From: Minisyncoccota bacterium
GTDB lineage: Bacteria > Patescibacteriota > Minisyncoccia > Phycocordibacterales > UBA9973
Length of the DNA: 64,000 nucleotides
Direction: 5' to 3'
NCBI GenBank assembly: GCA_041663185.1
Contig: JBAZQY010000001.1
Coordinates: forward strand, 19,448 to 83,447
Below are positions 4,887 to 54,244 of the stretch, in pieces; the stretch's first letter is position 1; each line of letters opens with the position of its first letter. The notes under the pieces are model-generated. The model was not told the DNA's origin and did not search any database. It saw nothing but the letters and a program-made list of their open reading frames with translations. The position numbers and the translations under genes were made by a program.

Positions 4887-4969
4887 GCGTCGGTGGCAGA
4901 GTGGTCAATTGCATTTGACTGTAAATCAAACGCCTTCGGGCTACGTAGGTTCGAATCCTACCCGGCGCA
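4887..4969 (+). tRNA. tRNA-Tyr(GTA): tRNA-Tyr (anticodon GTA) with long variable arm
   Basis: Acceptor stem gcgtcgg/ccggcgc with one GU pair, anticodon loop ctGTAaa, T-arm gtagg-ttcgaat-cctac, long variable arm. CCA is not encoded. Confidence 0.85.
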
Positions 4970-6455
4970 CTCTAGAGGACTCAATGTCTGAAATTGAAGA
5001 TTTTAGCTTGAAAAGAAAGGATGTATCAATGGTTCCAAATGCGCTGTTTTTGAAAGTGAGACCCTTTGGAAATTGGAACCATTGGAGTCGTATTTTTGTC
5101 TCAATAGGAGCATCACGCCAAACCTGACTTGGATTTCTAAAATATTCTTCTAATTCCTTCATAATTGAAAGAATGTCAATATTTAAGCTTGGCATTGCTA
5201 CCAATTGAGAGTTCAATTCCAGGAGTTCCTGGTCAATTAGTTCAAGTTGCTCTTTCAAGACCTCATTCTGGATAAATCCTTCAAGATTCTTTTTTATAAC
5301 ACTGGTTTGTTTGTATTTCAGTACTTGAATTTGCCTTTTCAATTTCTCTGTATTATTTCTTGTCTCTTGGAATTTCTTAGAAAAGTTCTTTTTAATTGCC
5401 AACTTCAGTTTCTCGATCTTTGATGAATCAAGGCTGTACTTATCCAGAAATTTCACAAAATCGTTCTCAAATTTATCCCGATTATAATTTGTATCCTTTC
5501 CTCCAAACCGGTAGTAGGGATATTTTTTGTCTCTGCCCTTTGACCAACTCCCGGTCAATTTTTTACCAATTTCATTGATCACGAATCTCCTCAATGGAAA
5601 GTCAGGATGATCCGTTATGTGCGTTGAATGTTTATGACCTTTATTCTTAAGGACCCTTTGTGCCTGATCGAAAATCTCCTCTGAAATTATTGCCGGGTAA
5701 AGGCCATTGTAAATTGCTCCAAATTTGATAATACGACCGCAGTAAAGTTCATTTCGGAGTATGGTGTAGAAATATCCTTTTGAAAATGGCTTTCCACTTT
5801 TATTAGCTAATCCTTTCTTTGTCATCATCTTTCTCACTTCCTCAGTCGTATATACATTACTTGCAACCAATGTAAACGTCTTGTGCACAATTGGAGCAAT
5901 TTTTGAATCCTTTACAATTGTAGCTTTTCCATTGACTTTTGCATTTAAATATCCAATAGGTGCCATCCAAACATATCTACCATCCCGCACAGCCTCCTTC
6001 ATTCCATTAGTGCTTCGTTCAGCCCTAATATCGTTATCAAATTGGGCAATATTGGCCATTGTATTTTCCATAAACCGACCAACAGGATTGTTTTCAAAAT
6101 ACTCAGAAGTCGATTTGATTTCGACTCCATACCTCTTTAATAATAGTCGTATTTGACTGTAATCATCTGTATTTCGGGACAATCTATCTAGTTTATAGAT
6201 TATCACTGCCCTGATCCCGTTCTTTTTTTCAGCACAATATTTAAGTAGCTTTTGAAGCTCTGTACGATCTGCAGTCTTGGCACTTTCACCTTGTTCCACA
6301 AAGACTTCATTAATTTCATAATCATTTTTATTAGCATATTCCCGGCAGATTCTCTCCTGGGTAACTAAGCTATTGCCTTCATCAGCCTGTTCCTTTGTTG
6401 AAACCCGGACATAGATTACGCACCTTTTCAATGCTGTTTGATTTGTAGTATTCAT
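4941..6455 (-). CDS. Large serine recombinase (integrase)
   Basis: Resolvase catalytic domain with YVRVSTKEQ (Ser nucleophile), recombinase domain, zinc-ribbon/coiled-coil C-terminus. 504 aa. The last roughly 10 codons overlap the tRNA-Tyr 3' end. Confidence 0.85.
   Translation of the reverse strand: MNTTNQTALKRCVIYVRVSTKEQADEGNSLVTQERICREYANKNDYEINEVFVEQGESAKTADRTELQKLLKYCAEKKNGIRAVIIYKLDRLSRNTDDYSQIRLLLKRYGVEIKSTSEYFENNPVGRFMENTMANIAQFDNDIRAERSTNGMKEAVRDGRYVWMAPIGYLNAKVNGKATIVKDSKIAPIVHKTFTLVASNVYTTEEVRKMMTKKGLANKSGKPFSKGYFYTILRNELYCGRIIKFGAIYNGLYPAIISEEIFDQAQRVLKNKGHKHSTHITDHPDFPLRRFVINEIGKKLTGSWSKGRDKKYPYYRFGGKDTNYNRDKFENDFVKFLDKYSLDSSKIEKLKLAIKKNFSKKFQETRNNTEKLKRQIQVLKYKQTSVIKKNLEGFIQNEVLKEQLELIDQELLELNSQLVAMPSLNIDILSIMKELEEYFRNPSQVWRDAPIETKIRLQWFQFPKGLTFKNSAFGTIDTSFLFKLKSSISDIESSRVRRVGFEPT
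4956..4970. repeat. attL-like direct repeat (last 15 nt of tRNA-Tyr)
   Basis: tcctacccggcgcac is identical to 10986-11000. Confidence 0.65.
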
Positions 6456-6681
6456 TTGATTTCTTATTCAGATATGCCTCAATTAGAATATTAGCATAGT
6501 AATCCAAAGCGACATCTTCTGAATCATTATTTAAACTATTAATGCCGAAAGAGGGACAACGACTTAAGGGTTTGTTGCTACACAAAAGCTCTCGTTGCCC
6601 CTCTTTTGGCTCAACCATTTTCTTAAGTATTTGGCTTTCATGTAGCTTACTCATAATATAAAATTTCTTAAAAATTTTCAA
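6382..6681 (-). CDS. Small hypothetical protein upstream of the integrase (possible directionality/regulatory factor; start probably internal)
   Basis: ORF only. Same strand as the integrase and overlapping its start. Confidence 0.3.
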   Translation of the reverse strand: MKIFKKFYIMSKLHESQILKKMVEPKEGQRELLCSNKPLSRCPSFGINSLNNDSEDVALDYYANILIEAYLNKKSNEYYKSNSIEKVRNLCPGFNKGTG

Positions 6682-6833
6682 CTAAAGCCTTGATTTGCTC
6701 TTCGAGGTCTTTGTTGTGTTTTCACTTTAGAGATTTTACTAAAATATTAGGAATGAGTAAGAAGCGAAAAATAACCTATTTCGTTATATTTCATCCTCTT
6801 TTAAGCACCATATAAAATGATTATGCTATTCTT

Positions 6834-8153
6834 ATGAGTGAAGAATCATGGAAAAGACAAGAAATCACGCCAATTGGATTGACTACCTGGCGAAGTGAAT
6901 ACAAGCCTTTTGGGATTAAAGACAATGATCGGCTTGGGCATATTTATGCAATTGGTAAAACTGGCACTGGAAAAAGTACTCTGCTAGAGAATATGGCTAT
7001 TTCTGATATCATTCGAGGTAATGGTCTTTGTGTAATTGATCCTCATGGAGATCTAGCTTCCAATATCCTTAATTACATACCGGAAAGTAGGATTAAAGAT
7101 GTTATTTACTTTAATCCAGTTGATAAGGAATATCCAATTGCCTTCAATCCTCTATCTGGCATTCATCCAAATCATCATCACTTAGTTGCTTCAGGGTTGA
7201 TTTCAACTTTCAAGAAGATTTGGGCTGATTCATGGGGGCCGAGAATGGAATATATTTTGCGCTTCGCACTCTTGACTTTGCTTGAAAATAGAAAGTGTAG
7301 TTTGCTAGATATTCAACCACTGCTCACTGACCAAACATTCCGAAATTCCATTTTGTCGCGTTCAATTAGCCCGTATATACTTTCTTTCTGGCACAATGAA
7401 TTTGATAAATATCCGCCGTCACTCAAGTCGGAAGCAATCGCACCTATATTAAATAAGGTAGGGCTATTTTTAGCCAGTACACCACTGAGAAATATTGTCG
7501 GCCAAAATTCGCGTGGATTTAATCTTCAAGAAGTTATGAATAATGGTAAAATTTTAATTGTGAATCTTTCAAAAGGAGAACTTGGTGAAGATGTTACAGC
7601 CATTCTTGGGAATATGATTGTCACTAACATTCAGCTTGCCGCCTTATATCGTGCCAGACAACCTGAACATACAAGGAAACCCTTCTATTTATATGTTGAC
7701 GAAATGCATTCTTTTGTCTCATTGTCTTTTGCAGATATTTTGGCTGAAGCCAGGAAATATCGGTTGTCTATTTTTCTTTCACACCAGTATATTGAACAAC
7801 TTCATGAAAAAATTAGAGCAGCCATCTTTGGAAATGTTGGTACTCTAATATCCTTCCGTATCGGGGCAACTGATGCTGAGTATTTAGAAAAAGAGTTCAA
7901 ACCGGTTTTTGATCAATACGATCTTATCCAATTGCCAAAATATAATATGTACTTAAAGCTGATGATTGATGGAGCAACTTCCCAGCCATTTAGTGCTGAG
8001 ACTAAGCCAATTTCCTTTTTGCCTCAAAAAAATATTTCTCAAGTGATTACATTTTCACAGGAAAGATATGGTTCAGAACGAAAAAGAGTAGAGGAAACTA
8101 TTTTAGCAAAGTATAAATCAAATGAAGGACGGCAAGATCAGAAACTATTTTAG
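6834..8153 (+). CDS. Soluble P-loop NTPase, T4SS coupling protein (TraD/VirD4/TrwB)- or FtsK/HerA-like, paralog 1
   Basis: Walker A GKTGTGKST, VIDPHGDL, YPIAFNPL, Walker B YLYVDEMHSF, then ARKYRLSIFLSHQYIEQL. No TM segment. Confidence 0.7.
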   Translation: MSEESWKRQEITPIGLTTWRSEYKPFGIKDNDRLGHIYAIGKTGTGKSTLLENMAISDIIRGNGLCVIDPHGDLASNILNYIPESRIKDVIYFNPVDKEYPIAFNPLSGIHPNHHHLVASGLISTFKKIWADSWGPRMEYILRFALLTLLENRKCSLLDIQPLLTDQTFRNSILSRSISPYILSFWHNEFDKYPPSLKSEAIAPILNKVGLFLASTPLRNIVGQNSRGFNLQEVMNNGKILIVNLSKGELGEDVTAILGNMIVTNIQLAALYRARQPEHTRKPFYLYVDEMHSFVSLSFADILAEARKYRLSIFLSHQYIEQLHEKIRAAIFGNVGTLISFRIGATDAEYLEKEFKPVFDQYDLIQLPKYNMYLKLMIDGATSQPFSAETKPISFLPQKNISQVITFSQERYGSERKRVEETILAKYKSNEGRQDQKLF

Positions 8154-8264
8154 GAATTTAAAAATATAAACAAATAAATTTATATTTTTACTAAGTCAAG
8201 TTATTATAACATCTTCCGTATCAGGTATAGTACTTCAGATTATTAACCTTTAAAACAGAAAATT

Positions 8265-8804
8265 ATGATTTATGCTATTATTCTAGCCGTCATTGTGATT
8301 CTCTTTCTTCTATTCCGGCCAAGACGCAAAAAAATTGGTGAGGTCGGACAACACTGGAACCATTTCTTTCCCAATTTCCAGTTCTCATCTGCAGAATTTT
8401 ATTCTTTAGTTGAAGAAAAGATTAAAGCTCAAGCAATGCCTAATACCCGAATCTCTAGGGTAAATTACGCCGAATCAAGCATTATTTCAAATAGACGAGA
8501 ATACTTACATATAGAGAGGAAAGAAGACATTTTTGATATTTGTGCCGCTCCATTTGGAACAGGTTTTTTCGTCTCCTATTGGCTTGGAAAGCCAAAGCAT
8601 GCTTTCAGAAATTTTCTTAGTAGAATACCTTACCTTAGTCAAATATCTGAAGGTTGGCAAGGTTCCACGTATTATCTGGCTGATACAGCAAGTATGTTTA
8701 GGGGTGCAGTTGTTAGTTCAATATCAGAGGCCATTGAAGAAATAACAACAAGAAAAGGTTTGCGTGGATTGTCAGAAAGTGAGCAATTTGCGATGGTTAG
8801 ATGA
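8265..8804 (+). CDS. Single-pass membrane protein (N-terminal TM helix), unknown function
   Basis: N-terminal MIYAIILAVIVILFLLF then RPRRKK. The stop overlaps the start of the next gene (ATGA), suggesting translational coupling. Confidence 0.5.
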   Translation: MIYAIILAVIVILFLLFRPRRKKIGEVGQHWNHFFPNFQFSSAEFYSLVEEKIKAQAMPNTRISRVNYAESSIISNRREYLHIERKEDIFDICAAPFGTGFFVSYWLGKPKHAFRNFLSRIPYLSQISEGWQGSTYYLADTASMFRGAVVSSISEAIEEITTRKGLRGLSESEQFAMVR

Positions 8805-10975
8805 GTTACTTTGAATTCTTAACAAAGCAATTTTACACCTGGGAGAAGCGTGGCCGGGGATGGGAGGTATTTTCCTTTCCTGTCGATTTAGAACCTCCGT
8901 ACGAGCCTTTTTTCTCTCATTCCATCCCATATGACAATGCTACCCGTGTCCTTGATGATGGTCTTCGCCCGACTATTTTTTCACGATTAATAACAGGGGT
9001 TAGAAACCTATTCATTTCAAAACCCATTATTTCTGAAGAAATTGTGGAAGATGAACCTGTCCCGCCTTTTACTTTTGATGATGAACCTCTAACAGCCTTC
9101 ACTGTCCTATTACCAAAAGATCAACAAATCAATTTCGAGGAATCTCTTCAATTATTATTAATGCTGTCCATGTCGATGTATCCAATTAGCTTTGAGATCA
9201 TCGGCAATAGCTCGTTCATTAAAATTCAATTTGTATGTCGAAAGCCTGATACACCAAATATTCAAAATCAAATAAAAGCCTATTTTCCGGCATGTCATTT
9301 TGATTTTGGAATATTAGAAGCAATCCTACCTGAAGGGAAACAAGGATATCTTGTAGATTTCGGTTTAAGCCAAGAATTCATGAGACCTCTTTCAGTGATC
9401 AAGAATTTTACGCTTGACCCATATATTGGTCTATTTGGAATTTTAGAGAATCTTTCAGAAGACGAGCAAGCAGTTATTCAAATATTATTTAAAAGTGCTC
9501 AAAACTCCTGGTCAGAAAGTATTATTCGTTCAGTTACAGACAATCAAGGTGATCCATTTTTTCTCGATGCACCAGAGATGGTCAAACTTGCTGAAGAAAA
9601 AATTTCCGCACCTCTTTTTGGGGTAGTGATTCGAATTATAGGACTCAATGAGGATGGTAGCGACTGGTTAGCTAAAAAACTTTCAGGGAAATTAATACAG
9701 ATTACCGGTTCACCATATAATAGATTAATTCCTCTTTCGACTGAGGGATATGATGAAGCTAATTTTTGTGAAGACATTCTACTTCGCCAATCTCATCGAT
9801 TGGGAATGTTACTTAACAGCAAAGAATTAGTTTCATTAATTCATTTTCCCTCTATCTCTGTCGTTTCTAGTAAACTTGAACGAGCAATTAGGAAAACCGT
9901 TAAAGCCCCTAAGATCTTTTTAGACCATAAGCTTGTACTAGGAAGTAATTTTCATCAAGGCCAGGCAAAGGATGTGACTATTGGCCCCGAACAAAGGTTG
10001 AAACATATCCATGTTATAGGAGCAACCGGCACTGGTAAGTCTACTCTTCTCCTTAACATGATAATTCAAGACATTAGAAACGGAGAAGGATTAGCAGTGA
10101 TTGACCCTCACGGTGATTTAATTGAAAGTATCCTACCCTGGATTCCTCCAATTCGTCACAATGATGTAATCATCTTTGATCCATCTGATACTGAATATCC
10201 AATTGCCTTTAATATTCTTACAGCTCATTCAGAAATTGAGAAAGATATCTTATCATCTGATCTTGTAGCTGTCTTTAAGCGTCTTTCCACCAGTTGGGGA
10301 GATCAAATGAATTCAGTCTTTGCCAATGCTATTCTTGCCTTCCTGGAAAGTGATAAAGGAGGAACCTTAATCGATTTACGCAAATTCCTTATCGAAAAGG
10401 AGTTTCGAGCTGATTTTCTGAAAACTGTTAAAGACCCCTCAATTACATATTACTGGAACAAGGAATTTCCAATTTTAAAAAGTACTTCAATTGGGCCAAT
10501 TTTGACCAGGTTGGATGCTTTCTTGAGACCGAAAGTCATCAGAAATATGGTTGCCCAAAACAAAAGTCTGGATTTTGAAAAAATCCTGGATGACAAGAAG
10601 ATACTGCTTATTAAGCTCTCACAAGGGTTAATAGGAGAAGAAAATAGCTACCTCTTGGGAGCATTCATCGTCTCAAAACTTCAGCAAATAACGATGTCTC
10701 GCCAAGTGAAAGCCAAAACTGCTCGCGGGAATTTCTATTTATACATTGATGAGTTCCAGAATTTCATCACCCCTTCCATGTCCGCAATACTCTCTGGTGC
10801 CCGAAAGTATCACTTAGGGATGGTCTTGGCACATCAGGGTATGCAACAGCTTGATAAGAATAACTCTGAAATCGCAAGCTCTGTTATTGCAAATGCCGGC
10901 ACTCGTATCTGCTTTAGGATTGGCGACATTGATGCGAAGAAGCTTGAAGCTAACTTTACACACTTTGATGCGTAG
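8801..10975 (+). CDS. Soluble P-loop NTPase, T4CP/FtsK-HerA-like, paralog 2 with roughly 390-aa N-terminal extension
   Basis: Walker A GATGTGKST, VIDPHGDL, YPIAFNIL, Walker B YLYIDEFQNF, ARKYHLGMVLAHQGMQQL. Clear paralog of 6834-8153. Confidence 0.7.
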   Translation: MSYFEFLTKQFYTWEKRGRGWEVFSFPVDLEPPYEPFFSHSIPYDNATRVLDDGLRPTIFSRLITGVRNLFISKPIISEEIVEDEPVPPFTFDDEPLTAFTVLLPKDQQINFEESLQLLLMLSMSMYPISFEIIGNSSFIKIQFVCRKPDTPNIQNQIKAYFPACHFDFGILEAILPEGKQGYLVDFGLSQEFMRPLSVIKNFTLDPYIGLFGILENLSEDEQAVIQILFKSAQNSWSESIIRSVTDNQGDPFFLDAPEMVKLAEEKISAPLFGVVIRIIGLNEDGSDWLAKKLSGKLIQITGSPYNRLIPLSTEGYDEANFCEDILLRQSHRLGMLLNSKELVSLIHFPSISVVSSKLERAIRKTVKAPKIFLDHKLVLGSNFHQGQAKDVTIGPEQRLKHIHVIGATGTGKSTLLLNMIIQDIRNGEGLAVIDPHGDLIESILPWIPPIRHNDVIIFDPSDTEYPIAFNILTAHSEIEKDILSSDLVAVFKRLSTSWGDQMNSVFANAILAFLESDKGGTLIDLRKFLIEKEFRADFLKTVKDPSITYYWNKEFPILKSTSIGPILTRLDAFLRPKVIRNMVAQNKSLDFEKILDDKKILLIKLSQGLIGEENSYLLGAFIVSKLQQITMSRQVKAKTARGNFYLYIDEFQNFITPSMSAILSGARKYHLGMVLAHQGMQQLDKNNSEIASSVIANAGTRICFRIGDIDAKKLEANFTHFDA

Positions 10976-11190: not shown

Positions 11191-11350
11191 TTCCTTGATT
11201 CCCCGTAAATTATGTGGTAATTTGTAAGTAAATCTACTGCTCCTAAAAATATCTGACTTTTGTTATATTTGTTTAGTTTATTTAGTTCCTTATGGGAATT
11301 TAATAAACTAAATAAATTAACATTAAACTCATAAATAAAAAATTACTTCT

Positions 11351-15894: not shown

Positions 15895-17181
15895 TCATTT
15901 CCACTTTTTGTATTTTTCTAAAATATCTTTCAGCCCTTTATATAATACGTCCATATCGCTCATTTTATTGCATCTACCAAGAGAAATACGAATTGAGCCA
16001 TCTGTTCCCGCCACATTTTTTTGACTAGCTCTCCTTAATGCTCCTATTACATAAGACGCACTATCATCATCACTCTTACAGGCACTTTTCTCTGACACAA
16101 AAATTCCTCGCGCCGATAATTCGATGACTAAAAGTTCACTTGAAATACCTGAAACAGAAATATTTATATTATTTGGAAGTCGGACTTCCACATCTCCGTT
16201 TAAAATTATTTTATAACCAGATGTATCAGAAAGTGATAACAATTTTTTAATTCCATAATCACGAATTGCGGTTAGTCGCTTTGATTCTTTTTCTTTCATT
16301 TTATTTACAATTCCAAGTGCCATGGCCACTCCTTTGATTAACGACACACTCTCCGTTCCAGAACGTAAACCAAATTCTTGTCCGCCTCCACCATAAAGTG
16401 GAGAAAGTTCCACTCCCCGTTTTTTATATAGAACACCTATTCCTTTGGGCCCATAAATTTTTGAACTATTAAAAGACATTAAATCAACCCCGAGTTTTTC
16501 AATATTTTCTGTAAATAAATAATTCATCGCCTGACAAGCATCGGTATGAAAAACAGGAAAATCAGAAGAAAAAACTCTTGTGTCTAGGTCGGACCTGGAC
16601 ATTTTAGACTTTTTGAAATGTCTAATTATTTTTGCGATTTCTTGTATAGGTTCGATTGTTCCAATTTCGTTGTTTGCATACATAACCGAAACCAAAACTG
16701 TATTTTCCTTAAGAGAATTTTTCAATTCTTCCAGATTTATAATTCCATTTTCATCAACACCAATATAAGTAACCTCTACCCTGCCCTCTTTTTTCAACAT
16801 TTTGCAATTCTCAAGCACGGCCGGATGTTCTATTTCGGTTGTAATAATATGTGGAATTTTGTATTCTGATTTTTCATTCTTAATTCTTAACCCGCCTTGC
16901 GCCGAGGCAGGTTCGTAATTCTTAATTAGCCCGAGCAAAGCGAGGGCGATGCTTTCCGTTCCACTTCCAGTAAAAATAATCTCATCACTATGAGCATTCA
17001 TTTGCTTTGCAATCTTACTCCTCGCTTCTTCGATAATTCCCCTTACCTTGACACCATCTTCATGGATTGCGTTTGGGTTAGCAAAAAGCTTTCGCTCATA
17101 AAAAGCCACTGTTCGAGCAACTCTCTTATCAATAGGTGTTGCCCCCGCATGATCTAGATATATCTTTTTCTTTCCTAACAT
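15895..17181 (-). CDS. Cysteine desulfurase (class V aminotransferase, IscS/NifS family)
   Basis: PLP-lysine region SSKIYGPKGIGVLY and catalytic Cys loop SEKSACKSD. Confidence 0.85.
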   Translation of the reverse strand: MLGKKKIYLDHAGATPIDKRVARTVAFYERKLFANPNAIHEDGVKVRGIIEEARSKIAKQMNAHSDEIIFTGSGTESIALALLGLIKNYEPASAQGGLRIKNEKSEYKIPHIITTEIEHPAVLENCKMLKKEGRVEVTYIGVDENGIINLEELKNSLKENTVLVSVMYANNEIGTIEPIQEIAKIIRHFKKSKMSRSDLDTRVFSSDFPVFHTDACQAMNYLFTENIEKLGVDLMSFNSSKIYGPKGIGVLYKKRGVELSPLYGGGGQEFGLRSGTESVSLIKGVAMALGIVNKMKEKESKRLTAIRDYGIKKLLSLSDTSGYKIILNGDVEVRLPNNINISVSGISSELLVIELSARGIFVSEKSACKSDDDSASYVIGALRRASQKNVAGTDGSIRISLGRCNKMSDMDVLYKGLKDILEKYKKWK

Positions 17182-17241: not shown

Positions 17242-17688
17242 ATGAATACCCTCATCTTATTTTATATAATTGCTTTGGCTATTGTCCTCGTTCTATTGTG
17301 GATTTTAATGATCGAACTGCGTTTGAAGCGAATTTTCGCTGGAACTAAGGCTCGAAATCTAGAAGAAATGATCACTCTTGTTGGTAAGAAAATAAATCAA
17401 TTAGAGGAAGCTCAAGAAAAAATAGATAAACATTTAATTACGATAGATAACCGATTAAATAAATCTATTCGGAACATCGAGACAGTACGTTTTAATCCCT
17501 TTGTTGATGCTGGAGGAAACCAGAGCTTCGCTATTGCTTTTATGAATGATGAAGGTAATGGTGTAGTCATGTCTTCTTTATATGCTCGTGATCGAATGAG
17601 TATTTTTGCCAAACCCATCATTGATGGTAAATCAGAATTTGAATTATCAAACGAGGAAAAAGAAGTTTTAAAAAAAGCAATTAAATAA
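17242..17688 (+). CDS. DUF4446-like membrane-anchored protein
   Basis: N-terminal TM plus the VRFNPFVDAGGNQSFAIAF motif typical of this family, as recalled. Confidence 0.55.
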   Translation: MNTLILFYIIALAIVLVLLWILMIELRLKRIFAGTKARNLEEMITLVGKKINQLEEAQEKIDKHLITIDNRLNKSIRNIETVRFNPFVDAGGNQSFAIAFMNDEGNGVVMSSLYARDRMSIFAKPIIDGKSEFELSNEEKEVLKKAIK

Positions 17689-17710
17689 TTTACACAGAAA
17701 ATAGTTAAAG

Positions 17711-17809
17711 AAAAGTAAATAATATCTAAAATTTATTCGCTTATCCCTACCTCGCTATGCTCGGCGCGCGCCCACACCTACTCATAAATTTTAGATATTA
17801 TTTACTTTT
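17711..17809. repeat. Long perfect hairpin (25-bp AT-rich stem) around a 49-nt GC-rich core; conserved core shared with 19789-19893
   Basis: aaaagtaaataatatctaaaattta pairs perfectly with taaattttagatattatttactttt. Loop is ttcgcttatccct...cggcgcgcgcccacacctactca. Confidence 0.7.
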
Positions 17810-17822
17810 ATAAAATTACATT

Positions 17823-19328
17823 ATGTCAGAAAAAAAAGATACAAATGAAAAAGTGCGCCCACCCATAATTGTCGTCATGGGGCATGTTGATCATGGTAAA
17901 TCAACCCTTTTAGATTACATTAGAAAATCAAATGTAGTTCTGGGAGAAGCTGGGGGTATCACTCAACATATTAGTGCCTATGAAGTGACCAGGAAAAGTG
18001 GCTCCGGGGAAACAAGGCAATTGACATTTCTCGATACTCCAGGGCATGAAGCTTTTTCGAAAATGCGTTGCCGTGGAGCACAAGCTGCTGACATTGCAAT
18101 TTTAGTAGTATCTGCTGAAGATGGTATGAAAGCCCAAACTCTTGAAGCTTACAACACAATTATCGAAAATAAAATTTCATACATCGTTGCTATTAATAAA
18201 ATTGACAAAGCTAACGCCAACATTGAAAAAACAAAAATGGATTTGTCAGAGAAAGGAATTTATCTTGAGGGGATGGGTGGCGACATTCCATTTGTTCTCA
18301 TTTCTGCCAAAACGGGTACTGGAGTAGAAGAACTTTTAGATATGATTATTCTCGTGGCTGACCTCGAAGAATTCAAGGGTGATCCATCACAAAATGCCAG
18401 TGGAATTGTGATTGAAGCAAAGCGTGACCCTCAGCGTGGAATTAGCGCCACTTGTATTATTAAAAATGGAACTCTTAAATCTGGAATGTTTGTGGCAACT
18501 GGTGAAGCAATAGTAACCACTCGTATAATGGAGAATTTTTTGGGTAAACCCATAAAAGAAGCCACATTTTCATCCCCTATTCGTCTGGTCGGCTTCCTAT
18601 CGATGCCAGAAATTGGAAATGTATTTCAATCATTTAAGACCAAAAAAGAAGCTGAGAATTATATTTACGAACTAAAAAATGAAAAAACACATAGTCCAGA
18701 AGATCGACAGGAAACTTTTAATGGTAAAATTATTCCAATTATTATCAAAACCGATGTATCTGGTTCTATTGAAGCAATAGAAAAAGAAATCAAGAAATTA
18801 AATCGTGATGAGATATCATTTAAAATAATTAGTAGCGGAGTCGGAGCAATAAATGAATCTGACCTAAAAATGGGGAGTGTAAACAAAGAAAGTGTAATTG
18901 TTGGATTCAACACAAAGATAGATAGCGGGGCCAGAGATTTGAATGAGTCATTGAAAGTAAAAATTGAAATTTTTGACATTATTTATAAACTAACTGATTA
19001 TCTTAAAGAATTAGTGGAAACTCGTCGTCCGAGAGTTGAGACAGTTGAAGTTATTGGATCATTGAAAGTATTGAAAACTTTCGGAGCAACCAAGGGTAAA
19101 CAAATTGTCGGTGGAAAAGTTACGACTGGGAAGATAACTCTGGGAAGTAATATTCGCATATTGCGTCGTGATTTTGAAATAGGAACTGGGAAAATCGCCG
19201 AACTACAAATTAATAAACTTAAATCAAAAGAAGTTGGAGAGGGGTCTGAATGTGGACTTCAAGTAGAGACGAAAATGGATATAGCTACCGGCGATGTACT
19301 TGAAGTTTTTGAAATTAAAATAGTATAG
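17823..19328 (+). CDS. infB: Translation initiation factor IF-2 (short form)
   Basis: G-domain [27 protein letters not shown]; IF-2 C-terminal domains. 501 aa. Confidence 0.9.
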
Positions 19329-19329
19329 G

Positions 19330-19418
19330 AGTTGAAACAAATTATATTCTAAAAAAAGTCCTCGGACGAGGGAGGACGAGAAGCCAGACATTTTTTTATA
19401 AAATAATTTGTTTCAACT
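19330..19418. repeat. Long imperfect hairpin (26/28-bp AT-rich stem) with a 33-nt GC-rich loop, between infB and rbfA
   Basis: agttgaaacaaattatattctaaaaaaa pairs with tttttttataaaataatttgtttcaact. The loop gtcctcggacgagggaggacgagaagccagaca contains a nested hairpin gtcctc/gaggac. Confidence 0.65.
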
Positions 19419-19429
19419 AAAATCAAAAA

Positions 19430-19753
19430 ATGTCAGAATATAGAAACGAAAAAATAAAAAACAATATAAAAGAACTTTCAGCGATATTCATTGAACGAGA
19501 AGCTGGAACTACTTCTCTTATTACTGTTACCCGAGTAGAGTTATCTCCTGATAGTAAGAGAGCAACTATTTTCATAAGTGTTATGCCAAGAGAAAAAGAA
19601 AATGCTGCTTATGGATTCATAAAAAGAAATCTAGGAGAGTTGCGAAAATATGTTGCTAAAAACTTAAAAATAAATCCCATCCCCTATTTAGATGTCATGA
19701 TAGACGAAGGAGAAAAACACCGCCAAAAAATTGACGAATTACTGAAAAATTAG
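19430..19753 (+). CDS. rbfA: Ribosome-binding factor A
   Basis: RbfA KH-like motif TVTRVELSPDSKRATIFISV. Confidence 0.85.
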   Translation: MSEYRNEKIKNNIKELSAIFIEREAGTTSLITVTRVELSPDSKRATIFISVMPREKENAAYGFIKRNLGELRKYVAKNLKINPIPYLDVMIDEGEKHRQKIDELLKN

Positions 19754-19788
19754 TTGCTAGGTTCTAGTTTCTAGGTTATATTAGGAAA

Positions 19789-19893
19789 GAAGCAAGTAGT
19801 ATACATAAAAATTTCTTCGCTTATCCCTCTCCGCCCTTCGGGCTCCGGCGCGCCCACACCTACTCAGAAATTTTCATGTATACTACTTGCTTC
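19789..19893. repeat. Long hairpin (28-bp stem, one mismatch) around the same GC-rich core as 17711-17809
   Basis: gaagcaagtagtatacataaaaatttct pairs with agaaattttcatgtatactacttgcttc. Loop is tcgcttatccct...ccggcgcgcccacacctactc. Confidence 0.7.
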
Positions 19894-19901
19894 TTAGAAA
19901 T

Positions 19902-19973
19902 GGCCTAGTCGCCAAGTGGTAAGGCAAGGGTCTGCAAAACCCTTACACAGCGGTTCGATTCCGCTCTAGGCCT
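19902..19973 (+). tRNA. tRNA-Cys(GCA): tRNA-Cys (anticodon GCA)
   Basis: Acceptor ggcctag/ctaggcc, anticodon loop ctGCAaa, T-arm agcgg-ttcgatt-ccgct. Confidence 0.85.
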
Positions 19974-20002
19974 CAGTGTGATATGATGTAATAGTTTTTT
20001 AT

Positions 20003-20086
20003 GCCGGGGTGGCGAAACTGGCAGACGCACTTGCCTTAGGAGCAAGCGAGAGTAATCTCATGGAGGTTCAAGTCCTCTCCCCGGCA
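20003..20086 (+). tRNA. tRNA-Leu(TAG): tRNA-Leu (anticodon TAG) with long variable arm
   Basis: Acceptor gccgggg/ccccggc, anticodon stem-loop cttgc-ctTAGga-gcaag, T-arm ggagg-ttcaagt-cctct. Confidence 0.85.
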
Positions 20087-20167
20087 CAAAAGATATTTTG
20101 TGCGAGGACTTGAAGACCTTGAGTATATCGCACGGAACAAAGTGAGTACGATACGAAAGGTGTACAG

Positions 20168-20191
20168 AATCTGTAAGATTCAAGTCCTCTC
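20168..20191. repeat. Direct repeat of the tRNA-Leu 3' end (att-like duplication) about 80 bp downstream of the tRNA
   Basis: attcaagtcctctcccccggcaca matches the tRNA T-loop/acceptor ggttcaagtcctctccccggcaca with a 1-nt indel. Confidence 0.6.
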
Positions 20192-20215
20192 CCCCGGCAC
20201 AATATTTTTTATTTT

Positions 20216-23203: not shown

Positions 23204-25192
23204 ATGACTGAAATACATAAAAAAAATCAAAATACTAAATCTAAGAATTCTCAAAGATTTAGTTATAGAAAACAGGGTAATATCCGTGTCTTACATAAAG
23301 TAGGACAGCCTAACATTAAAACTAATACAAATATTGTAAAACAAAATACTTATACCACAAATGACAAACCACAAACATCCAATAGAAAAATAAATCGTAG
23401 TAGTTATCAATATGGAAGTAATAAAGGAGGTCGGATGCCCAAAAGAGAAAAGGCTCCTCCTCCAACCACCTATCAAACGTTTAAGAAAACAGTTTCCAAA
23501 ATTCCCGACCCAGAAAAAGGAGTCATCCGAATTATTCCACTTGGAGGAGTAGAGGAAATTGGAAAAAATATGACCGCGATTGAAATTGGTGATGATATTA
23601 TCGTCATTGATGCTGGAATGCAATTCAAAACAGAAGATACTCCAGGAATTGATTATATTATTCCAAATACGACTTATTTAGAAGAAAGAAAGGATAAAAT
23701 TCGAGCCATGCTTGTAACTCACGGGCACTTGGATCATATTGGGGGTATCCCTCTTGTCATGAGTCGAATTGGTAATCCTCCATTATATTCTCGAAACTTA
23801 TCTGTCTTGGTTATGAAGAAACGTCAGGAAGAATTCCCTCACCTACCACCACTTGATGCACATATTATTGAAACAAATTCAGTTGTCTATGCCGGTAAAA
23901 TTCGTATTCGCTTTTTTGGTGTGACTCACACCATGCCCGATTCTATGGGTATCGTCATCGAAACACCCTATGGAGTCATCGTAACCCCTGGAGATTATAA
24001 ACTTGATCAAATAGATGGCGTAGTTACAGACGAAGAAGAAAAAGAATATGCTTTTTTTGATAAAGAAAAAGTTCTTCTGTTATTGACAGACTCAACAAAT
24101 ATTGAAAATGAAGGATTTGCGTTACCAGAAGTGCGAGTGCATGAGGGCTTGGATAAAGTGATCAGACAAGGCACTGGCCGTATTATTATTTCAGCTTTTG
24201 CTTCATCAATTACTCGTTTAATGAAAATTGTTGAAATCGCTGAATCTCTCGGGAAGAAAGTCGTCTTAGATGGAAGGTCACTGAAAACAAACATGGAGGT
24301 TTGTGAACAAGCTGGAATTTTTAAACCTAAAAAGGGCACCATTATTCCAGTTGAAGATGTTGATAAATATCCACCCAATAAAGTTCTAATTATGATGACC
24401 GGAGCCCAGGGAGAAGAATTCGCCGCTCTCGGCCGTGCTGCAAATAAAACTCACAAGAAATTTACCATTCGCCCGGGTGATACAATAATACTTTCTTCAT
24501 CTATTGTCCCTGGCAATGAAATCGCAGTTCAACATTTGAAAGATAACTTATCTCGTCATGGTGTCCGGATTATTAGTTATAGAACAAGTGAAGAATACAT
24601 CCACGCCACAGGTCACGGTAATCAAGAAGATATAAAATGGCTACATAAGAAAACTCATCCAAAATTTTTCATTCCAATTCATGGTTGGCATTCGATGCTT
24701 GTCAAACATAAAGAGGTTGCTATGTCTCTCGGAATGTCTGAAGAAAACATTATTGTCCCCGACAATGGCTCTATTATTGAAATTGTAAATAATGGAAGTA
24801 AAATTGTTCTTCGTAAAGAAAAAGCCCCATCTGGTCCGATGATGGTGGATGGATTTTCTATTGGTGATGAACAAGATGTTGTTATCAGAGATAGAGTTAT
24901 GCTTGCTCAAGATGGTATGTTTGTTTTAATTGCAACGATTGATTCGACTACTGGTAAATTAAGAAAATCTCCAGACATCATATCGCGTGGATTTATCTAT
25001 CTCAAAGAAAACCAGGAATTACTTCACCAAGTCCGATTAATTATCAAAAAAACAATTGAAGATGAGATTGGAAGAATGAATCCGATCGACTTTGATGTTA
25101 TTAAAACTGCCCTGGGAGATAATATTTCAAAATTCCTTTTCCAGAAAACCGCTAAACGACCTATTGTCATTCCAGTATTATTAAGTATTTAA
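23204..25192 (+). CDS. rnj: Ribonuclease J (MBL/beta-CASP) with a basic low-complexity N-terminal extension
   Basis: HxHxDH motif LVTHGHLDHIGG plus beta-CASP and C-terminal domains. A possible alternative start sits at about 23435, preceded by an AAAGGAGG SD. Confidence 0.85.
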   Translation: MTEIHKKNQNTKSKNSQRFSYRKQGNIRVLHKVGQPNIKTNTNIVKQNTYTTNDKPQTSNRKINRSSYQYGSNKGGRMPKREKAPPPTTYQTFKKTVSKIPDPEKGVIRIIPLGGVEEIGKNMTAIEIGDDIIVIDAGMQFKTEDTPGIDYIIPNTTYLEERKDKIRAMLVTHGHLDHIGGIPLVMSRIGNPPLYSRNLSVLVMKKRQEEFPHLPPLDAHIIETNSVVYAGKIRIRFFGVTHTMPDSMGIVIETPYGVIVTPGDYKLDQIDGVVTDEEEKEYAFFDKEKVLLLLTDSTNIENEGFALPEVRVHEGLDKVIRQGTGRIIISAFASSITRLMKIVEIAESLGKKVVLDGRSLKTNMEVCEQAGIFKPKKGTIIPVEDVDKYPPNKVLIMMTGAQGEEFAALGRAANKTHKKFTIRPGDTIILSSSIVPGNEIAVQHLKDNLSRHGVRIISYRTSEEYIHATGHGNQEDIKWLHKKTHPKFFIPIHGWHSMLVKHKEVAMSLGMSEENIIVPDNGSIIEIVNNGSKIVLRKEKAPSGPMMVDGFSIGDEQDVVIRDRVMLAQDGMFVLIATIDSTTGKLRKSPDIISRGFIYLKENQELLHQVRLIIKKTIEDEIGRMNPIDFDVIKTALGDNISKFLFQKTAKRPIVIPVLLSI

Positions 25193-26388: not shown

Positions 26389-27067
26389 ATATTTGGCCAT
26401 TCACAATTACTCCACTCGCACTGGAGCTGATGAACTTATAAAAAAAGGTTTTGTCTCTATTAATGGAAAGCGTGCAGTACTTGGTGATAAGGTCAATAAG
26501 GGTGATGAGGTAATTGTAAGCAAAAAAGCTCCTCAAAAAGAATATGTCTATTATGCTTATAATAAAGCTACTGGGATTTCTACAAACCCAGACACTACAA
26601 GTAAAGATATTCTACAGGTTACAAAATTCCCTGTCCGAGTTTTCCCAGTCGGCCGATTGGATAAAGATTCACACGGATTAATTATACTGACCAACGACGG
26701 TAGGGTGACTGATCGACTTCTGTCCCCTCGCTTTATCCACGAGAAAGAATATGTTGTGAAGGTCGAACCGAATTTCTCAGATAAATTCATTACCCTCATG
26801 TCAAACGGTGTCCACTTTGATAAATATGTCAGCAAGAAATGCAAAGTGAATCGCAAGGAAAACTCCAAAAATACTTTCCATATAATTCTTACTGAGGGTA
26901 AAAAACGGCAAATTAGACGAATGTGCGAAGCCCTACACCACCAGGTTCTAGACCTTAAAAGAATCAGAATTATGAATATTCTACTCGGCAAACTCCCTCT
27001 TGGTGAGTTTCGTGAAATAAAAGAAAAAGAATTAAATGAATTTTTGAAATCATTAAATCTCATATAA
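26357..27067 (+). CDS. Pseudouridine synthase, RsuA/RluB family (S4 domain plus catalytic domain)
   Basis: S4 region INKYLA..., catalytic motif VGRLDKDSHGLIILTNDG. Overlaps the MFS gene by 32 bp. Confidence 0.8.
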   Translation: MNLSYPIRINKYLAIHNYSTRTGADELIKKGFVSINGKRAVLGDKVNKGDEVIVSKKAPQKEYVYYAYNKATGISTNPDTTSKDILQVTKFPVRVFPVGRLDKDSHGLIILTNDGRVTDRLLSPRFIHEKEYVVKVEPNFSDKFITLMSNGVHFDKYVSKKCKVNRKENSKNTFHIILTEGKKRQIRRMCEALHHQVLDLKRIRIMNILLGKLPLGEFREIKEKELNEFLKSLNLI

Positions 27068-27069
27068 CA

Positions 27070-27098
27070 AAAAATCCCCATAATGGGGATTTTTTGTT
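27070..27098 (+). terminator. Intrinsic terminator
   Basis: atcccca-taa-tggggat stem-loop followed by tttttgtt. Confidence 0.7.
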
Positions 27099-27147
27099 AT
27101 TTTATTTAGCTATGTATGGCTAAATCACAATGTGATCGCCCGATTGC

Positions 27148-27384: not shown

Positions 27385-27520
27385 AAACCCTGTTAAATAA
27401 AATTTGACAGATATTCTTTATTTCTAAAAACATTACGGGTGTTTATATTTTTAATTCAATTAATTGATAAAATGTCCTGTGTTAAATTTTAATTTTTATT
27501 AAAAATTATTTAACAGGGTA
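27385..27520. repeat. 14-bp perfect inverted repeat flanking a 106-bp AT-rich spacer between ssb and rpsR
   Basis: accctgttaaataa at 27387-27400 pairs with ttatttaacagggt at 27507-27520. Confidence 0.4.
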
Positions 27521-28555: not shown

Positions 28556-28704
28556 TGTTATAATGCGTAAAAACGCAATAAATTGTTAATTTTAATACCA
28601 TCTTGCTATGGACCAATGTGTACCGACTTCAGGGTCGGGACAAACGAGATGTGGAGTTATACTAGCAAAAATAAGGCAATAAGTCCACCCCTATACTTGC
28701 AATT

Positions 28705-28823
28705 AGTTGGTACTTAAAATAGTCTTATCAGAGGGGCTTTTGAGCGCGACGGCGCGAAAACGGAGAAAATTTCTAGCAAGAAATTTTGGTACCCTCTGGG
28801 AAGAGCTATTTTAAGTACCAACT
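28705..28823. ncRNA. Candidate structured RNA element: 18-bp perfect inverted repeat enclosing an 83-nt GC-rich multi-hairpin core (tatD-rpsF intergenic)
   Basis: agttggtacttaaaatag pairs with ctattttaagtaccaact. Nested stems cagaggg/ccctctg, cgcg-acgg-cgcg and aaaatttct/agaaatttt. Confidence 0.4.
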
Positions 28824-28824
28824 A

Positions 28825-40999: not shown

Positions 41000-43900
41000 T
41001 TATTTCTCAATAGTTATTTTAAAGACAATTTCTCCTGTTTTTATTTCTTCTCCGGTATTTCCCTTGAATTGTATTTCTTTTGCACTTACTGCTTTCATTA
41101 ATTCAGATTTAAATTTATTTATCAATTCTTGCCCTTCAGTATTTGTCTCAACAATAAGGGTAACAACATCACTAGGATTTAATCCATTATTTTTTCTGAT
41201 ATCTTGAATAGCTCGAACAAGTTCACGATACTGCCCTTCTTTCTTTAATTCCGGAGTTATATTTGTATCAAGTTCAACTTTTTGTTCGTCCCCCTTGATA
41301 AATTCAACTTCCTTAATATTTAACTCATCTTTAAGAATTTCCTGATAATCAATTGGTAATTGGTAATTGGTAATTAGTAATTTACTAAGTGGTTGCCTAA
41401 CGGGGATACCCTCTTTTTGCCTTGCTTGTAAACCAAGTGTAACAATATCACGAGCCTTTTGCATTTCTTCAATAATTTTTAATTCTTCATTGTTAATTCT
41501 TAATTCATTCTCAGGCCATTCTGCTAAATGCACACTCTCCTCATCTTTTTCATTTTTTAATTTCTGCCAAATATCCTCACTAGCAAATGGAGTAAACGGC
41601 GCCATTAATTTAATTAATGTTTTTAGAACATAGTAAAGAGTAATTTTTGCTTGTTCTTCTCCTTCTTTTATTCTGTCGCGTGAGCGACGTAGATACCAAG
41701 TTGAAAGATCATCAATAAAATCACGAATTGCTCGCACCGGTTCAAGAAGTTTGTAGTCATCTAATTTTTGTGTGCATTCATCGGTTAATTCCGTCAATCT
41801 TGCTATTATCCATTGATCTAAAATGTTATCTGATTTTTTGTATTCAATATTTTCTAACTCTATATCGCGATATAGTTCATAAAAAGCTAGCACGTTGTAA
41901 AGCAGATTAAATACCTTACTGTGAAGTTCCGCCACAGTCTTTTCATCAAAGTTTTTTGATTCCCCAGGTTGATTAACTGCATACATCCACAAGCGCAAAG
42001 TATCAACTCCATATTTGTCCATCATGGACCATGGGTCAACAATATTTCCGAGCGACTTACTCATCTTCTTCCCTTTTGCATCAAGTAAATGTCCTAAACA
42101 AATAACATTCTTGTACGCTTTACCTTTACCCATAATTGCTCCAACTGCATGAAGTGTATAGAACCATCCACGTGTCTGATCAATCGCTTCTGAAATAAAG
42201 TCGGCTGGGTACCCACCTCCTTTTTCAATTAAGTCTTTATTCTCAAAAGGATAATGATCTTGAGAGAATGGCATCGTTCCTGAATCAAGCCAAACATCCA
42301 TCACCTCCTTTACTCGAACAAGATTCCCCCCACAATCACAAGTAAGTTCTACTTCATCAATAAATGGTTTATGCAAATCAAGTTCATAATCTTCATTATG
42401 GGGGATAGCTACAAAATTATATTCTTCAAAATTTCCAAAATCTACAGGGTCCTCTTTCCAGTTTTTCCAAGCTGTCTTGACATCATCTCCATTAAGAATT
42501 GACGGTAACACTTCAAAAACTATCCCGTGAGCAACAAAAAGAATGTTTTCGCCTGAATACTTTGATTCCATCTCATAAATAAAATTAGCCACACGCTTTT
42601 TTGCTTCATAACATGATTCACCACCTTCCGGAGGAGTAAAAAAATCTTCGTGTTTCTTTCTCCATTCATTATAATCAGTTTTTGATTTACCATTATAAAT
42701 ACCGAAATTATATTCATGTAATCTTTCATCAGTAATTATTTGTTCCCTGGAAAAACCAATTACATCAGCAACAATTTTTGCTGTCTCTTGTGTTCGGATA
42801 AATGGGGATACAAATATTTTTGTAATTTTTTTATTTCGCAATTTCTCTGCCATTTCTTTTACATATTTTTTACCATTTTCAGTTAAATGATGAGGAAGAT
42901 TTGGATCACCCCCACTACAAACATTCAAAATGGTATGTTCCCCTTCTCCATGCCTCATTCCAAAATATTTATTCCCTGATCTTTTGGTTTTAGATTTTAA
43001 ATCTTCAACACTTCCAATAACTTCAACTTTATTGCATTTATCACAAGTCCAAACAGGAAGTGGGCTCCCCCAATAACGCTCACGAGAAATTGCCCAGTCT
43101 TTAATTTCTCTTAGCCATTCACCAAAACGTCCTTCTTTGATATAAGCTGGTTCCCAATTTATTCCTTCATTTTCTTTCACGAGTTTATCTCGCAACTGTG
43201 ACATCCTAATATACCAAGAGTCACGAGCATAATAGATAAGCGCCGTGTGACATCGCCAACAATGTGGGTATGAGTGCTCATATTTTTCTTTCTTAAATAA
43301 AAGTCCTCTATGAGCCAAATCTTTAATTATATCAACAGCGACTTCTTCATCGCGAACAAATCTAAAACTTAAATCTAAATCACCTTGTTTCATTTCAGAA
43401 TAAAAAGTTCCATTCAATCCCACTAAATGATGTTTAGGTAAATTTAATTTATTCCCTAAGGTGAAGTCATCCTGTCCGTACATTACAGCTGTATGCACAA
43501 CACCTGTACCATCTTCTGTGGTCACAAAATCAGCTGGGTATATTTTATAAGCATTAACCATTTTAGCTGATTCTGTTTGATTTTGTCTTATTTCATTTTC
43601 TAAAAAAGAATACAGCGGTTCATATTCAAGACCAATTAAATCTTTACCCTTAATATCATCGTACACAATTTCTATTTTTTGGTCTTCAAATACATTCTCA
43701 ACACGTGCACTAGCAAGAATATATAATTCAGAAACCCCATCAACTCGTAATGCTGTATAAGAAATATTTTCACCAACAGCTAAAGCTACATTGCCTGGTA
43801 GTGTCCACGGAGTTGTAGTCCAAGCTAGAATATATGCAGAATCTTTTGTTTCTTTATTGCCGCCATATTTTTGACCTGATTTCAATTTTAATTTCACATA

Positions 43901-46486: not shown

Positions 46487-46521
46487 ACAATCCCCCCAGA
46501 TAGGGCCTAAAGCCCTATCTG
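46487..46521. terminator. GC-rich perfect hairpin downstream of argS
   Basis: ccccccagatagggc-ctaaa-gccctatctgggggg, a 15-bp stem. No clean U-tract on the argS strand. Confidence 0.45.
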
Positions 46522-46574
46522 GGGGGATATTGATTTTTAATACCTATTTGTTACTTCTTACTTACTACTTTTTA

Positions 46575-54201: not shown

Positions 54202-54244
54202 AACAAATAAAAAACACGATATTAAAATTTTAATATTGTGTTTT

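Follow-up and report, generated by a model that had tools for sequence, protein, structure and literature searches.

Hairpins around infB and rbfA in a Minisyncoccota genome are probably insertions of palindromic repeats with conserved apex cores and variable arms

Rickettsia palindromic elements (RPEs) are ~100-150 bp long, belong to several families and are found both in intergenic regions and in-frame within protein genes, where they are translated (PMC10969869). Correia elements (CREE/NEMIS) are capable of inversion, RNase III cleaves their transcripts at paired inverted repeats, and SPRITE repeats are terminator-like (PMC10969869). Here we analyzed a 64,000-nucleotide stretch of contig JBAZQY010000001.1 from a Minisyncoccota bacterium (the whole of which is termed the window), in which four long hairpins, designated H1 to H4, lie around infB and rbfA and upstream of rpsF. 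An initial interpretation of this DNA, made from its letters alone (the sequence-only reading), had viewed such hairpins as a regular punctuation of operons carrying translation genes, and it is partly supported by the present analysis. We are fairly confident, however, that H1-H4 are insertions of three families (A twice, B and C) of non-autonomous palindromic repeats, ~90-130 bp long, of Paceibacteria, which belong to the candidate phyla radiation (CPR). From their polymorphism and pairing we infer that these elements are selfish, that they resemble RPEs and MITEs (transposable elements of the miniature inverted-repeat kind), and that they are kept and spread at the DNA level.

Like RPEs, these small palindromic repeats fall into several families, reside in a genome that is reduced and AT-rich, and occupy spacers as well as in-frame positions in conserved genes, a likeness of kind and not of homology. 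Unlike RPEs, they reside in another host phylum, possess a conserved GC-rich core at the hairpin apex with arms that differ between copies, appear at least sometimes to have one arm copied from the flank, and are for the most part intergenic. The four copies of the window, whose G+C content is about 35%, are these:

17711-17809 (+), H1, family A, DUF4446-infB spacer; 26-bp perfect stem, 47-nt loop; arms 17711-17736 and 17784-17809, core 17737-17783, organized as TCG-CTTATCCCT-ACC-type inner hairpin-GGCGCGCGCCCACACCTACTC
19330-19418 (+), H2, family B, infB-rbfA spacer; 28-bp stem with 2 mismatches, 33-nt loop; arms 19330-19357 and 19391-19418, core GTCCTCGGACGAGGGAGGACGAGAAGCCAGAC
19787-19895 (+), H3, family A, rbfA-tRNA-Cys spacer; 30-bp stem with 1 mismatch, 49-nt loop; arms 19787-19816 and 19866-19895, CTC-type inner hairpin GCCC-TTCG-GGC
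28704-28824 (+), H4, family C, between tatD and rpsF (both minus-strand genes); 19-bp perfect outer stem, 83-nt structured core

The sequence-only reading had placed the first three of these correctly, each precisely within its spacer, and their stems (26, 28 and 30 bp with 0-2 mismatches) do have a length suited to RNase III. The different loop it had seen in the middle hairpin is the family-B core of H2, and what it overlooked is that the loops of H1 and H3 are one conserved sequence. The hairpin it had described upstream of rpsF is real as well, the core of H4 containing two inner hairpins, one a covarying 4-bp stem with a GACG loop and the other an AT stem with an AGCA loop. At the two weaker sites it had likened to these (27385-27520 and 11268-11320), inverted repeats are indeed present, but of a different architecture: both are AT-rich and imperfect (27387-27519, 79% complementary; 11267-11317, 87% complementary with a 5-nt loop) and lack a GC-rich core, and no further copies of 27385-27520, 11260-11325 or 6540-6615 were found elsewhere. 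Long stems were far more frequent in the window than in shuffled sequence, with 10 hairpins of at least 16 bp compared to 1.2 +/- 1.05 expected (40 shuffles), and four of at least 24 bp compared to 0.025. Against dinucleotide shuffles, the RNA folds of H1-H3 (-29 to -43 kcal/mol) gave z = -6.6 to -7.7 and that of H4 gave z = -10.6 to -12.3. Cored hairpins occupy only about four of the ~60 gene boundaries of the window, and copies also lie inside coding sequence, two points that speak against punctuation.

H1 and H3 share the core TTCG-CTTATCCCT ... GGCGCGCCCACACCTACTCA, and none of 100 shuffles reached two matches. The family-A core, TTCG-CTTATCCCT...GCGCCCACACCTACTCA, was found by an exact-pattern scan of species-representative genomes at 24 loci in metagenome-assembled genomes (MAGs) of Paceibacterota/Nomurabacteria, some of them labelled Saccharibacteria, with one MAG holding 11 copies. 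A scan of metagenomes used the 3' box only, and the 5' box was nearly invariant in the loci retrieved although the scan did not demand it. Both sources together gave about 80 distinct family-A copies, each with a stem of 20-30 bp (median 25 bp) whose sequence varies between copies, and with strongly conserved core boxes on either side of a covarying inner hairpin of variable length. Core lengths are 45-60 nt in family A, about 33 nt in family B (core GGTCCTCGGAYGAGGGAGGACRAGGRGCCAGACC, as in H2) and 54-89 nt in family C (the two-hairpin core of H4). When 231 hairpins within 714 kb were sorted by loop family, they fell into family A (93 copies), families B, C and D, an A-like family E, and about 80 coreless, terminator-like palindromes. 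A covariance model built for family A (R1) assigned 113 bits to H3 and 103 bits to H1, both of which are training-set copies, and about 20 bits (22-24 for H2) to H2, H4 and coreless palindromes, the contribution of the stem alone.

The genome-wide family proposed by the sequence-only reading thus holds as a clade-wide and almost exclusively intergenic one, but without the proposed tie to translation genes: the neighbors of the roughly 80 family-A copies are ordinary housekeeping genes (e.g., ychF, ftsZ, trxB, alr, murB and ddl). In tandem contexts, 27 copies point the same way as the genes beside them and 16 the opposite way; a further 11 lie in convergent contexts and six in divergent ones. 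An Rfam search of the whole window at gathering thresholds returned three tRNAs only, and a search of 17680-19920 at E<=10 returned only generic long-hairpin matches (miRNA precursor models, far below thresholds); we found no description of these elements in the literature on CPR repeats or noncoding RNAs. Several candidate identities were rejected. Core lengths of 45-60 nt that are not multiples of three do not suit a peptide-coding function; a phage or plasmid origin was set aside, since two matches to viral contigs were due to chance and lacked the hairpin, none was obtained with family B, and no plasmid matched; a scan for promoters directed outward from the arms did not rise above shuffles (14 compared to 10.7); and inspection by eye revealed no fitting pattern for a split DnaA box (TTATCC...CACA), an anti-SD-like 3' box, DNA-uptake sequences or dif sites.

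The genes surrounding H1-H3 in the window are as follows:

17242-17688, DUF4446 gene, upstream flank of H1
17823-19328, infB, encoding a short InfB, between H1 and H2
19430-19753, rbfA, between H2 and H3
19902-19974 (+), tRNA-Cys(GCA), directly 3' of H3
20003-20087 (+), tRNA-Leu(TAG), 3' of tRNA-Cys

We compared this locus to 13 relatives whose InfB proteins are 75-89% identical (labels such as L090, L101 and L109 denote related contigs). The gene order aminotransferase/DUF4446-infB-rbfA-tRNAs-CDF transporter is kept in them, and the three junctions, namely DUF4446-infB (J1), infB-rbfA (J2) and rbfA-tRNA-Cys (J3), are occupied as listed:

J1, family A(+): window, L105
J1, A-like variant core: L104
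J1, family A(-): L106, L028
J1, family E: L001
J1, other GC-rich element: L101
J1, family B: L109
J1, empty (11-37 nt): L102, L103, L107, L108, L080
J2, family B(+): window, L105, L104 (the L104 core with an extra nested hairpin)
J2, whole hairpin flipped: L101
J2, same arms, different short core: L109
J2, same arms as H2, coreless (loop 'tcc'): L046
J2, composite: L106
J2, empty (9-24 nt): L102, L001, L080, L103, L107, L108
J3, family A(+): window, L104, L046
J3, family A(-): L103, L108, L001, L080
J3, empty: L101, L102, L106, L109
J3, no cored hairpin, partial duplicate of the tRNA-Cys 5' half: L105, L107

At all three junctions, the hairpins fail to keep their position across the 13 relatives, being present, flipped, replaced by another family, coreless or absent. 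Five to six of the 13 are empty at J1 and J2 and four at J3, with operon-like spacers of 9-37 nt. This pattern does not support regular operon punctuation, and the hairpins are very probably dispersed repeat elements.

Two further observations concern these junctions. In L105 (3428-3700) and L107 (3352-3500), the partial duplicate of the tRNA-Cys 5' half is followed by unrelated sequence and lies upstream of the intact tRNA-Cys, and a TAATAT box adjoining the tRNA start was duplicated along with the tRNA half; this suggests a past integration or rearrangement at the tRNA. In addition, L110, a 1601-bp short-read contig that is the only other contig with an identical InfB, was compared with window 17760-19365 and found to end ~60 nt upstream and ~35 nt downstream of infB, both ends thus falling within H1 and H2; short-read assemblies appear to be interrupted by the repeats, at their cores.

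The stems bear a signature of their own. Counted over the copies, stem positions form 1726 Watson-Crick pairs; G·T occurs 20 times, A·C 33 times and any other combination 15 times. With 63 copies aligned, the share of paired positions in columns 6-30 is about 83-100% (mostly >87%), and variable columns show all four Watson-Crick pair types with 0-1 G·U per column. Stem covariation was 0.73, compared to 0.18 in shuffles (0 of 500 reached it) and 0.12-0.20 in slid controls. RNA helices under selection normally tolerate G·U. Here G·U is nearly absent and G·T and A·C differ without clear bias, and strand-specific RNA selection on the stems was rejected; random single hits on a DNA palindrome would be expected to leave both mismatches at an equally low level. 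The near-pure Watson-Crick pairing, together with the flips, speaks for complementarity being kept at the DNA level, through recombination or conversion between arms or through the manner in which arms form, and not by selection on one transcript, and we thus hold it likely that the elements are maintained as DNA. A constraint on bidirectional terminators could mimic this signature, though most contexts are tandem. Along the stem, the innermost ~8 bp (AAAWTTTN) are conserved, the next ~8 bp are semi-conserved and the outer 10-15 bp are copy-specific, the outer arms differing even between copies of one genome whose cores are 100% identical.

Several family-B matches lie inside open reading frames (ORFs). 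A hot spot of insertion was found in the class-V aminotransferase gene beside DUF4446, 5-7 residues upstream of the motif FP[LV]FHTDACQ, with the following states in the relatives and in the window:

Hot spot, empty: L102, L105
Hot spot, family B, translated as ...SSDEGGRGARP...: L101, L108, L028
Hot spot, family C: L103, L107
Hot spot, other GC-rich hairpins: L001, L109
~16561-16608 (-), decayed family-B remnant at the hot spot of the window, in-frame in gene 15895-17181, encoding SKMSRSDLDTRVFSSD
~16891-16911 (-), 21-nt GC-rich mini-hairpin cctgcctcggcgcaaggcggg, in-frame in the same gene, encoding PASAQGG, not in relatives

The aminotransferase ORF stays open in all of these cases, encoding 407-457 aa across relatives, and its length varies among close relatives because of the palindromic inserts. 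Compared to L102, the L101 insert measures 66 nt and consists of a 28-nt left arm, 'caag', a 33-nt core and 'a'. Its right arm is native coding sequence (L-K-N-D-Y-I-F-P-L-F-H), and its left arm is the reverse complement of the native downstream codons at 26 of 28 positions; L108 and L028 follow the same arm logic, each with its own local sequence. At J2, the empty alleles of L103, L107 and L108 hold all or most of ACAAATTATTTTA (12 of 13 nt in L107 and 10 of 13 in L108), which constitutes the native-orientation arm of the filled alleles and is in the empty ones either the arm template or a remnant of deletion by microhomology. Judging by these alignments, at least some hairpins may, as a tentative proposal, have arisen from a core joined to an inverted flank copy. 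A flank-copied arm would explain why arms are site-specific yet perfectly paired, and why regular target duplications are lacking.

A separate insert of about 117 nt lies directly after tRNA-Leu (20088-20205). It ends with a direct repeat of the tRNA 3' end, ttcaagtcctctcccc(c)ggcaca (~20179-20201), and begins with an inverted copy, gaggacttgaa (~20104-20114), the two forming a hairpin around a ~65-nt structured core. At the same site L101 carries a family-C-like core, and L103, L108 and L109 have no insert. By its sequence, this insert would be a further case of hairpin arms made from local sequence.

Each element comprises a conserved, asymmetric GC-rich core, containing an inner hairpin that is free to vary, atop an AT-rich inverted repeat of 20-30 bp. 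In the mechanism that we propose, the second arm would be formed at insertion as an inverted copy of the flank, through foldback or template switching; recombination or gene conversion between the arms would flip the core and keep the arms identical; and cores, along with inner-arm sequence, would be exchanged among the hairpins of one genome. Bearing on such exchange, the copies of one MAG, despite unrelated outer arms, agree fully (100%) over their 50-nt cores or have inner hairpins specific to the genome (GAATCC/GGATTC four times; CGCTCGCAAGCTCGC five times, and a sixth time with one base changed). Similarly, H3 and its orthologous copy in L046 differ at ~7 arm positions, all mirrored in the opposite arm, and in the inner hairpin, with the flanks ~93% identical, which is consistent with the interior having been replaced or converted as one palindrome, i.e., with concerted evolution. 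In some family-A copies the stem is interrupted, 17-19 bp from the core, by a TTCA/TTTC internal loop, beyond which pairing continues, about 15 have YTCR-like flanks, and one (L015) has a 10-bp direct repeat, features that may point to insertion into hairpin apexes. It is rather doubtful, though conceivable, that these elements represent a new class of mobile element, in which only the 33-60 nt core would be transferable, would enter A/T runs or hairpin apexes, would copy the target in inverted form to make arms of 20-30 bp and would then flip by arm recombination.

A number of observations weigh against the preferred account of the hairpins as insertions of palindromic repeats. The flank-copy model is based mainly on one coding hot spot and on the empty J2 alleles, and the family-B arm lineage AGCTTCACAAATTATATTCTGAAAAAA is found at no fewer than four distinct loci, two of them in one genome. 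Whole arms are also common to different loci, as seen at J1 and J2 of L109, where identical arms enclose another core at one of the two junctions, in L065 and L086, and in L055 compared with the following site of the window:

54201-54254, coreless perfect palindrome placed as a bidirectional terminator would be, between the DHFR and kinase genes, which converge

The arms of this palindrome are 93% identical over 30 nt to those of a cored family-A copy at L055:1451-1558 (between ddl and a K-channel gene), and arms common to separate loci imply that whole hairpins, cored or coreless, also disperse. No mobilizing enzyme was identified in the window or in the neighborhoods of copies: the 239 ORFs neighboring copies clustered into housekeeping families only, without transposase or RAYT, and Pfam scans of 61 of the window's ORFs found no transposase except a serine recombinase within an unrelated island, whole genomes not having been searched. 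No recent insertion was seen between near-identical strains, the sole contig with the same InfB being a 1.6-kb fragment that ends at the hairpins. Target-site duplications are inconsistent, limited to the direct repeat of L015 and to the pyrimidine-rich YTCR-like flanks of a subset, and none was seen at the window junctions in comparison with empty sites. Finally, the compensatory changes in orthologous copies could reflect host selection for the hairpin, as could the retention of the J2 hairpin across ~20% InfB divergence.

Also weighing against it, the outer end of many family-A copies resembles a bidirectional terminator, with a 5' A-tract, GC-containing outer stem and 3' T-tract. The hairpins would then be intrinsic (bidirectional) terminators of the host, with the conserved apex an accessory or a hitch-hiker, as in SPRITE; in line with this, the coreless palindrome at 54201-54254 and the L055 copy are both located between convergent genes, and the minus strand of the family-B core scores as a terminator. 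We nonetheless regard this explanation as improbable, since H1-H3 have no U-tract in the gene direction and sit within an operon that is tight in relatives, divergent genes flank six copies, others are in-frame in coding sequence, and the conserved cores of 33-60 nt are left unaccounted for. The variant in which cores were inserted into pre-existing terminators finds no support at the empty J1-J3 junctions, where no bare terminator was seen, but keeps some plausibility from the coreless hairpin of L046, which has the same arms. Arm-versus-arm BLAST for orthologous empty hairpins gave the candidates L003/L054 and L002/L100, which turned out to be low-complexity sequence or a different repeat. 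Gene ends at 27064-27100, 46490-46528 and 1983-2024 bear short, perfect and nearly loop-less palindromes with A/T tracts (e.g., ATAACAAAAAATCCCCAT/ATGGGGATTTTTTGTTAT), which have the look of ordinary (bidirectional) terminators of this genome.

A still less probable explanation is that the cores are small structured RNA genes, ribozymes or protein-binding RNA motifs, either freed from a processing stem, as rRNAs are, or acting in cis. Strongly conserved boxes around a length-variable, covarying inner hairpin would suit such a role, as would the two covarying inner hairpins with conserved loops of family C. The family-A core folds better on its minus strand (-290 compared to -232 kcal/mol, summed over 44 variants), where tandem G·A/GGA loops and a G·U hairpin (GGUGU-GGGC-GCGCC) would form; this too counts against our preferred interpretation, and it could hint at a strand-specific folded form, with the strand (as single-stranded DNA or RNA) recognized by a mobilizer. 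Speaking against RNA function are the mixed orientation relative to transcription with flips at orthologous sites, outer stems devoid of G·U, cores translated in-frame within a protein, the occurrence of a coreless hairpin and of a core swap within the same arms, and the absence of any Rfam match even at E<=10.

With respect to transcripts, no unpaired U-tract follows the stems of H1-H3 in the gene direction and a terminator scan found none on the plus strand, the only terminator-like site at these hairpins lying within the H2 core on the minus strand. Read-through is therefore likely, yielding transcripts with at least 25 bp of double-stranded RNA. RNase III needs roughly 20 bp of stem, and 26-30 bp is long enough. 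The sequence-only reading had asked for a check for an rnc gene; none was found in the window (no Ribonuclease_3 domain among 61 of its ORFs scanned against Pfam, with RNase J at 23204-25192), and a homologue does exist in the clade, at L090:1718-2299, on a contig that carries families A, C and D. It is plausible, by this reasoning, that RNase III cleaves transcripts of the elements as a side effect that is not conserved. As a by-product, such transcripts would fold into double-stranded RNA that could be cut by RNase III or slow exonucleases, possibly uncoupling the cistrons in this genome, an effect that would be neither conserved nor the reason for the elements' existence. Least probable of all, and very unlikely, is a host-evolved punctuation with an RNase III processing hairpin at each infB-rbfA cistron boundary and in other translation operons: stems of 26-30 bp precisely at three boundaries, likely read-through, an RNase III in the clade and the Correia precedent of cleavage at repeat stems (PMC10969869) would favor it, but the junctions are empty, flipped or filled by other families in many of the 13 relatives, copies occur in both orientations and are not associated with translation genes, pairing is Watson-Crick only, some copies are in-frame within coding sequence, and the conserved cores are left unexplained.

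To return to insertions of palindromic repeats, the interpretation we prefer, other known systems resemble the elements in part. The RNase III sites of the E. coli metY-nusA-infB-rbfA-pnp operon are likewise long stem-loops in the same gene neighborhood, but the hairpins described here are not conserved in position, are missing in close relatives and belong to dispersed families, and the gene upstream of infB is DUF4446, not nusA. Like Correia elements and MITEs (ERIC, BOX, RUP and SPRITE), they are non-coding, multi-copy, intergenic and hairpin-forming, and in being small (90-130 bp), dispersed and present in about 80 family-A copies they conform to what is expected of a MITE. In MITEs, however, the terminal inverted repeats are conserved within a family, target-site duplications are defined and the interior varies, whereas these elements lack conserved terminal inverted repeats and show a conserved core, variable arms, inconsistent duplications and no known parent insertion sequence.

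Repetitive extragenic palindromic (REP) sequences, including the BIME and REPIN-RAYT systems, are also extragenic palindromes recognized by structure and found in either orientation, and the GTAG motif of such sequences is present on the family-A minus strand (GAGTAGGTG). REP palindromes serve as insertion targets for some insertion sequence elements. The likeness is incomplete: REPs are 20-40 nt long, number hundreds per genome and have a conserved stem, unlike the variable stems here, GTAG is restricted to the family-A minus strand and missing from families B and C, and neither the window nor the neighborhood of any copy yielded a RAYT (Y1 transposase) gene. Integron attC sites were rejected as a model because they have conserved outer R''/R' boxes and a variable center, and lie at cassette 3' ends, the reverse in layout of what is seen here, where the neighbors are housekeeping genes. 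In the parts of the organelle literature considered, yeast mitochondrial GC clusters, the palindromic repeats of Volvox (PMC2670323) and the coding palindromes of Nematomorpha (PMC6649704) are described as GC-rich palindromes that spread through AT-rich, compact genomes and are sometimes nested or located in coding sequence, as here; their hosts are organelles and, on the same basis, they share no sequence with the present elements.

Several features lying apart from the repeats were also observed. In the window, tRNA-Tyr (4887-4970) is followed by a large serine recombinase gene (4941-6455, minus strand; Resolvase and Recombinase domains) and two genes for TrwB/TraG-like type IV coupling proteins (6834-8153 and 8801-10975), a region (4887-10975) that looks like a mobile island integrated at a tRNA gene. 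Between the recombinase and the first coupling-protein gene lies a unique hairpin (6544-6610; 19-bp stem, 29-nt loop). The isoleucyl-tRNA synthetase (41000-44533, minus strand, 1177 aa) bears a histidine-phosphatase (His_Phos_1) domain at residues 526-690, in the middle of its catalytic domain, which is an unusual insertion. In related contigs, perfect DnaA-box-like sites (TGTGGATAA) beside very AT-rich palindromes, at L003 ~1893-1905 (also beside a family-C hairpin) and L054 ~8200-8245, may mark replication-origin regions. A different repeated palindrome, TACATAGGTCTTGCCTATGTA, each arm of which is itself a hairpin, occurs at L002:2958-3094, L084:1401-1537 and L100:1000-1039; it is perfect in L100, and in L002 and L084 it is split by 95 nt of AT-rich sequence.

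The genomes of CPR/Patescibacteria count as streamlined and repeat-poor. In those analyzed here, no fewer than three to five hairpin-repeat families reside at gene junctions and in a presumed protein loop, and they are a ready source of annotation artefacts, such as false "regulatory hairpins" and variable protein lengths. They alter operon spacing as well, turning an infB-rbfA spacer of 9 nt into a stable hairpin of about 100 nt, and this changed spacing may shift RNA processing and expression between strains. The architecture of an apex core with variable, sometimes flank-derived arms and flips is, to our knowledge, undescribed for CPR bacteria. Were the elements truly a new class, a conserved apex with target-derived arms would constitute a mechanism and an architecture not described for MITEs, REPs or RPEs. 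If the derivation of arms from the flank holds, it would represent an undescribed route of DNA insertion that explains how stems can be perfectly paired yet unrelated to one another, and the movement of RPEs and of mitochondrial GC clusters would become testable in metagenomic population data.

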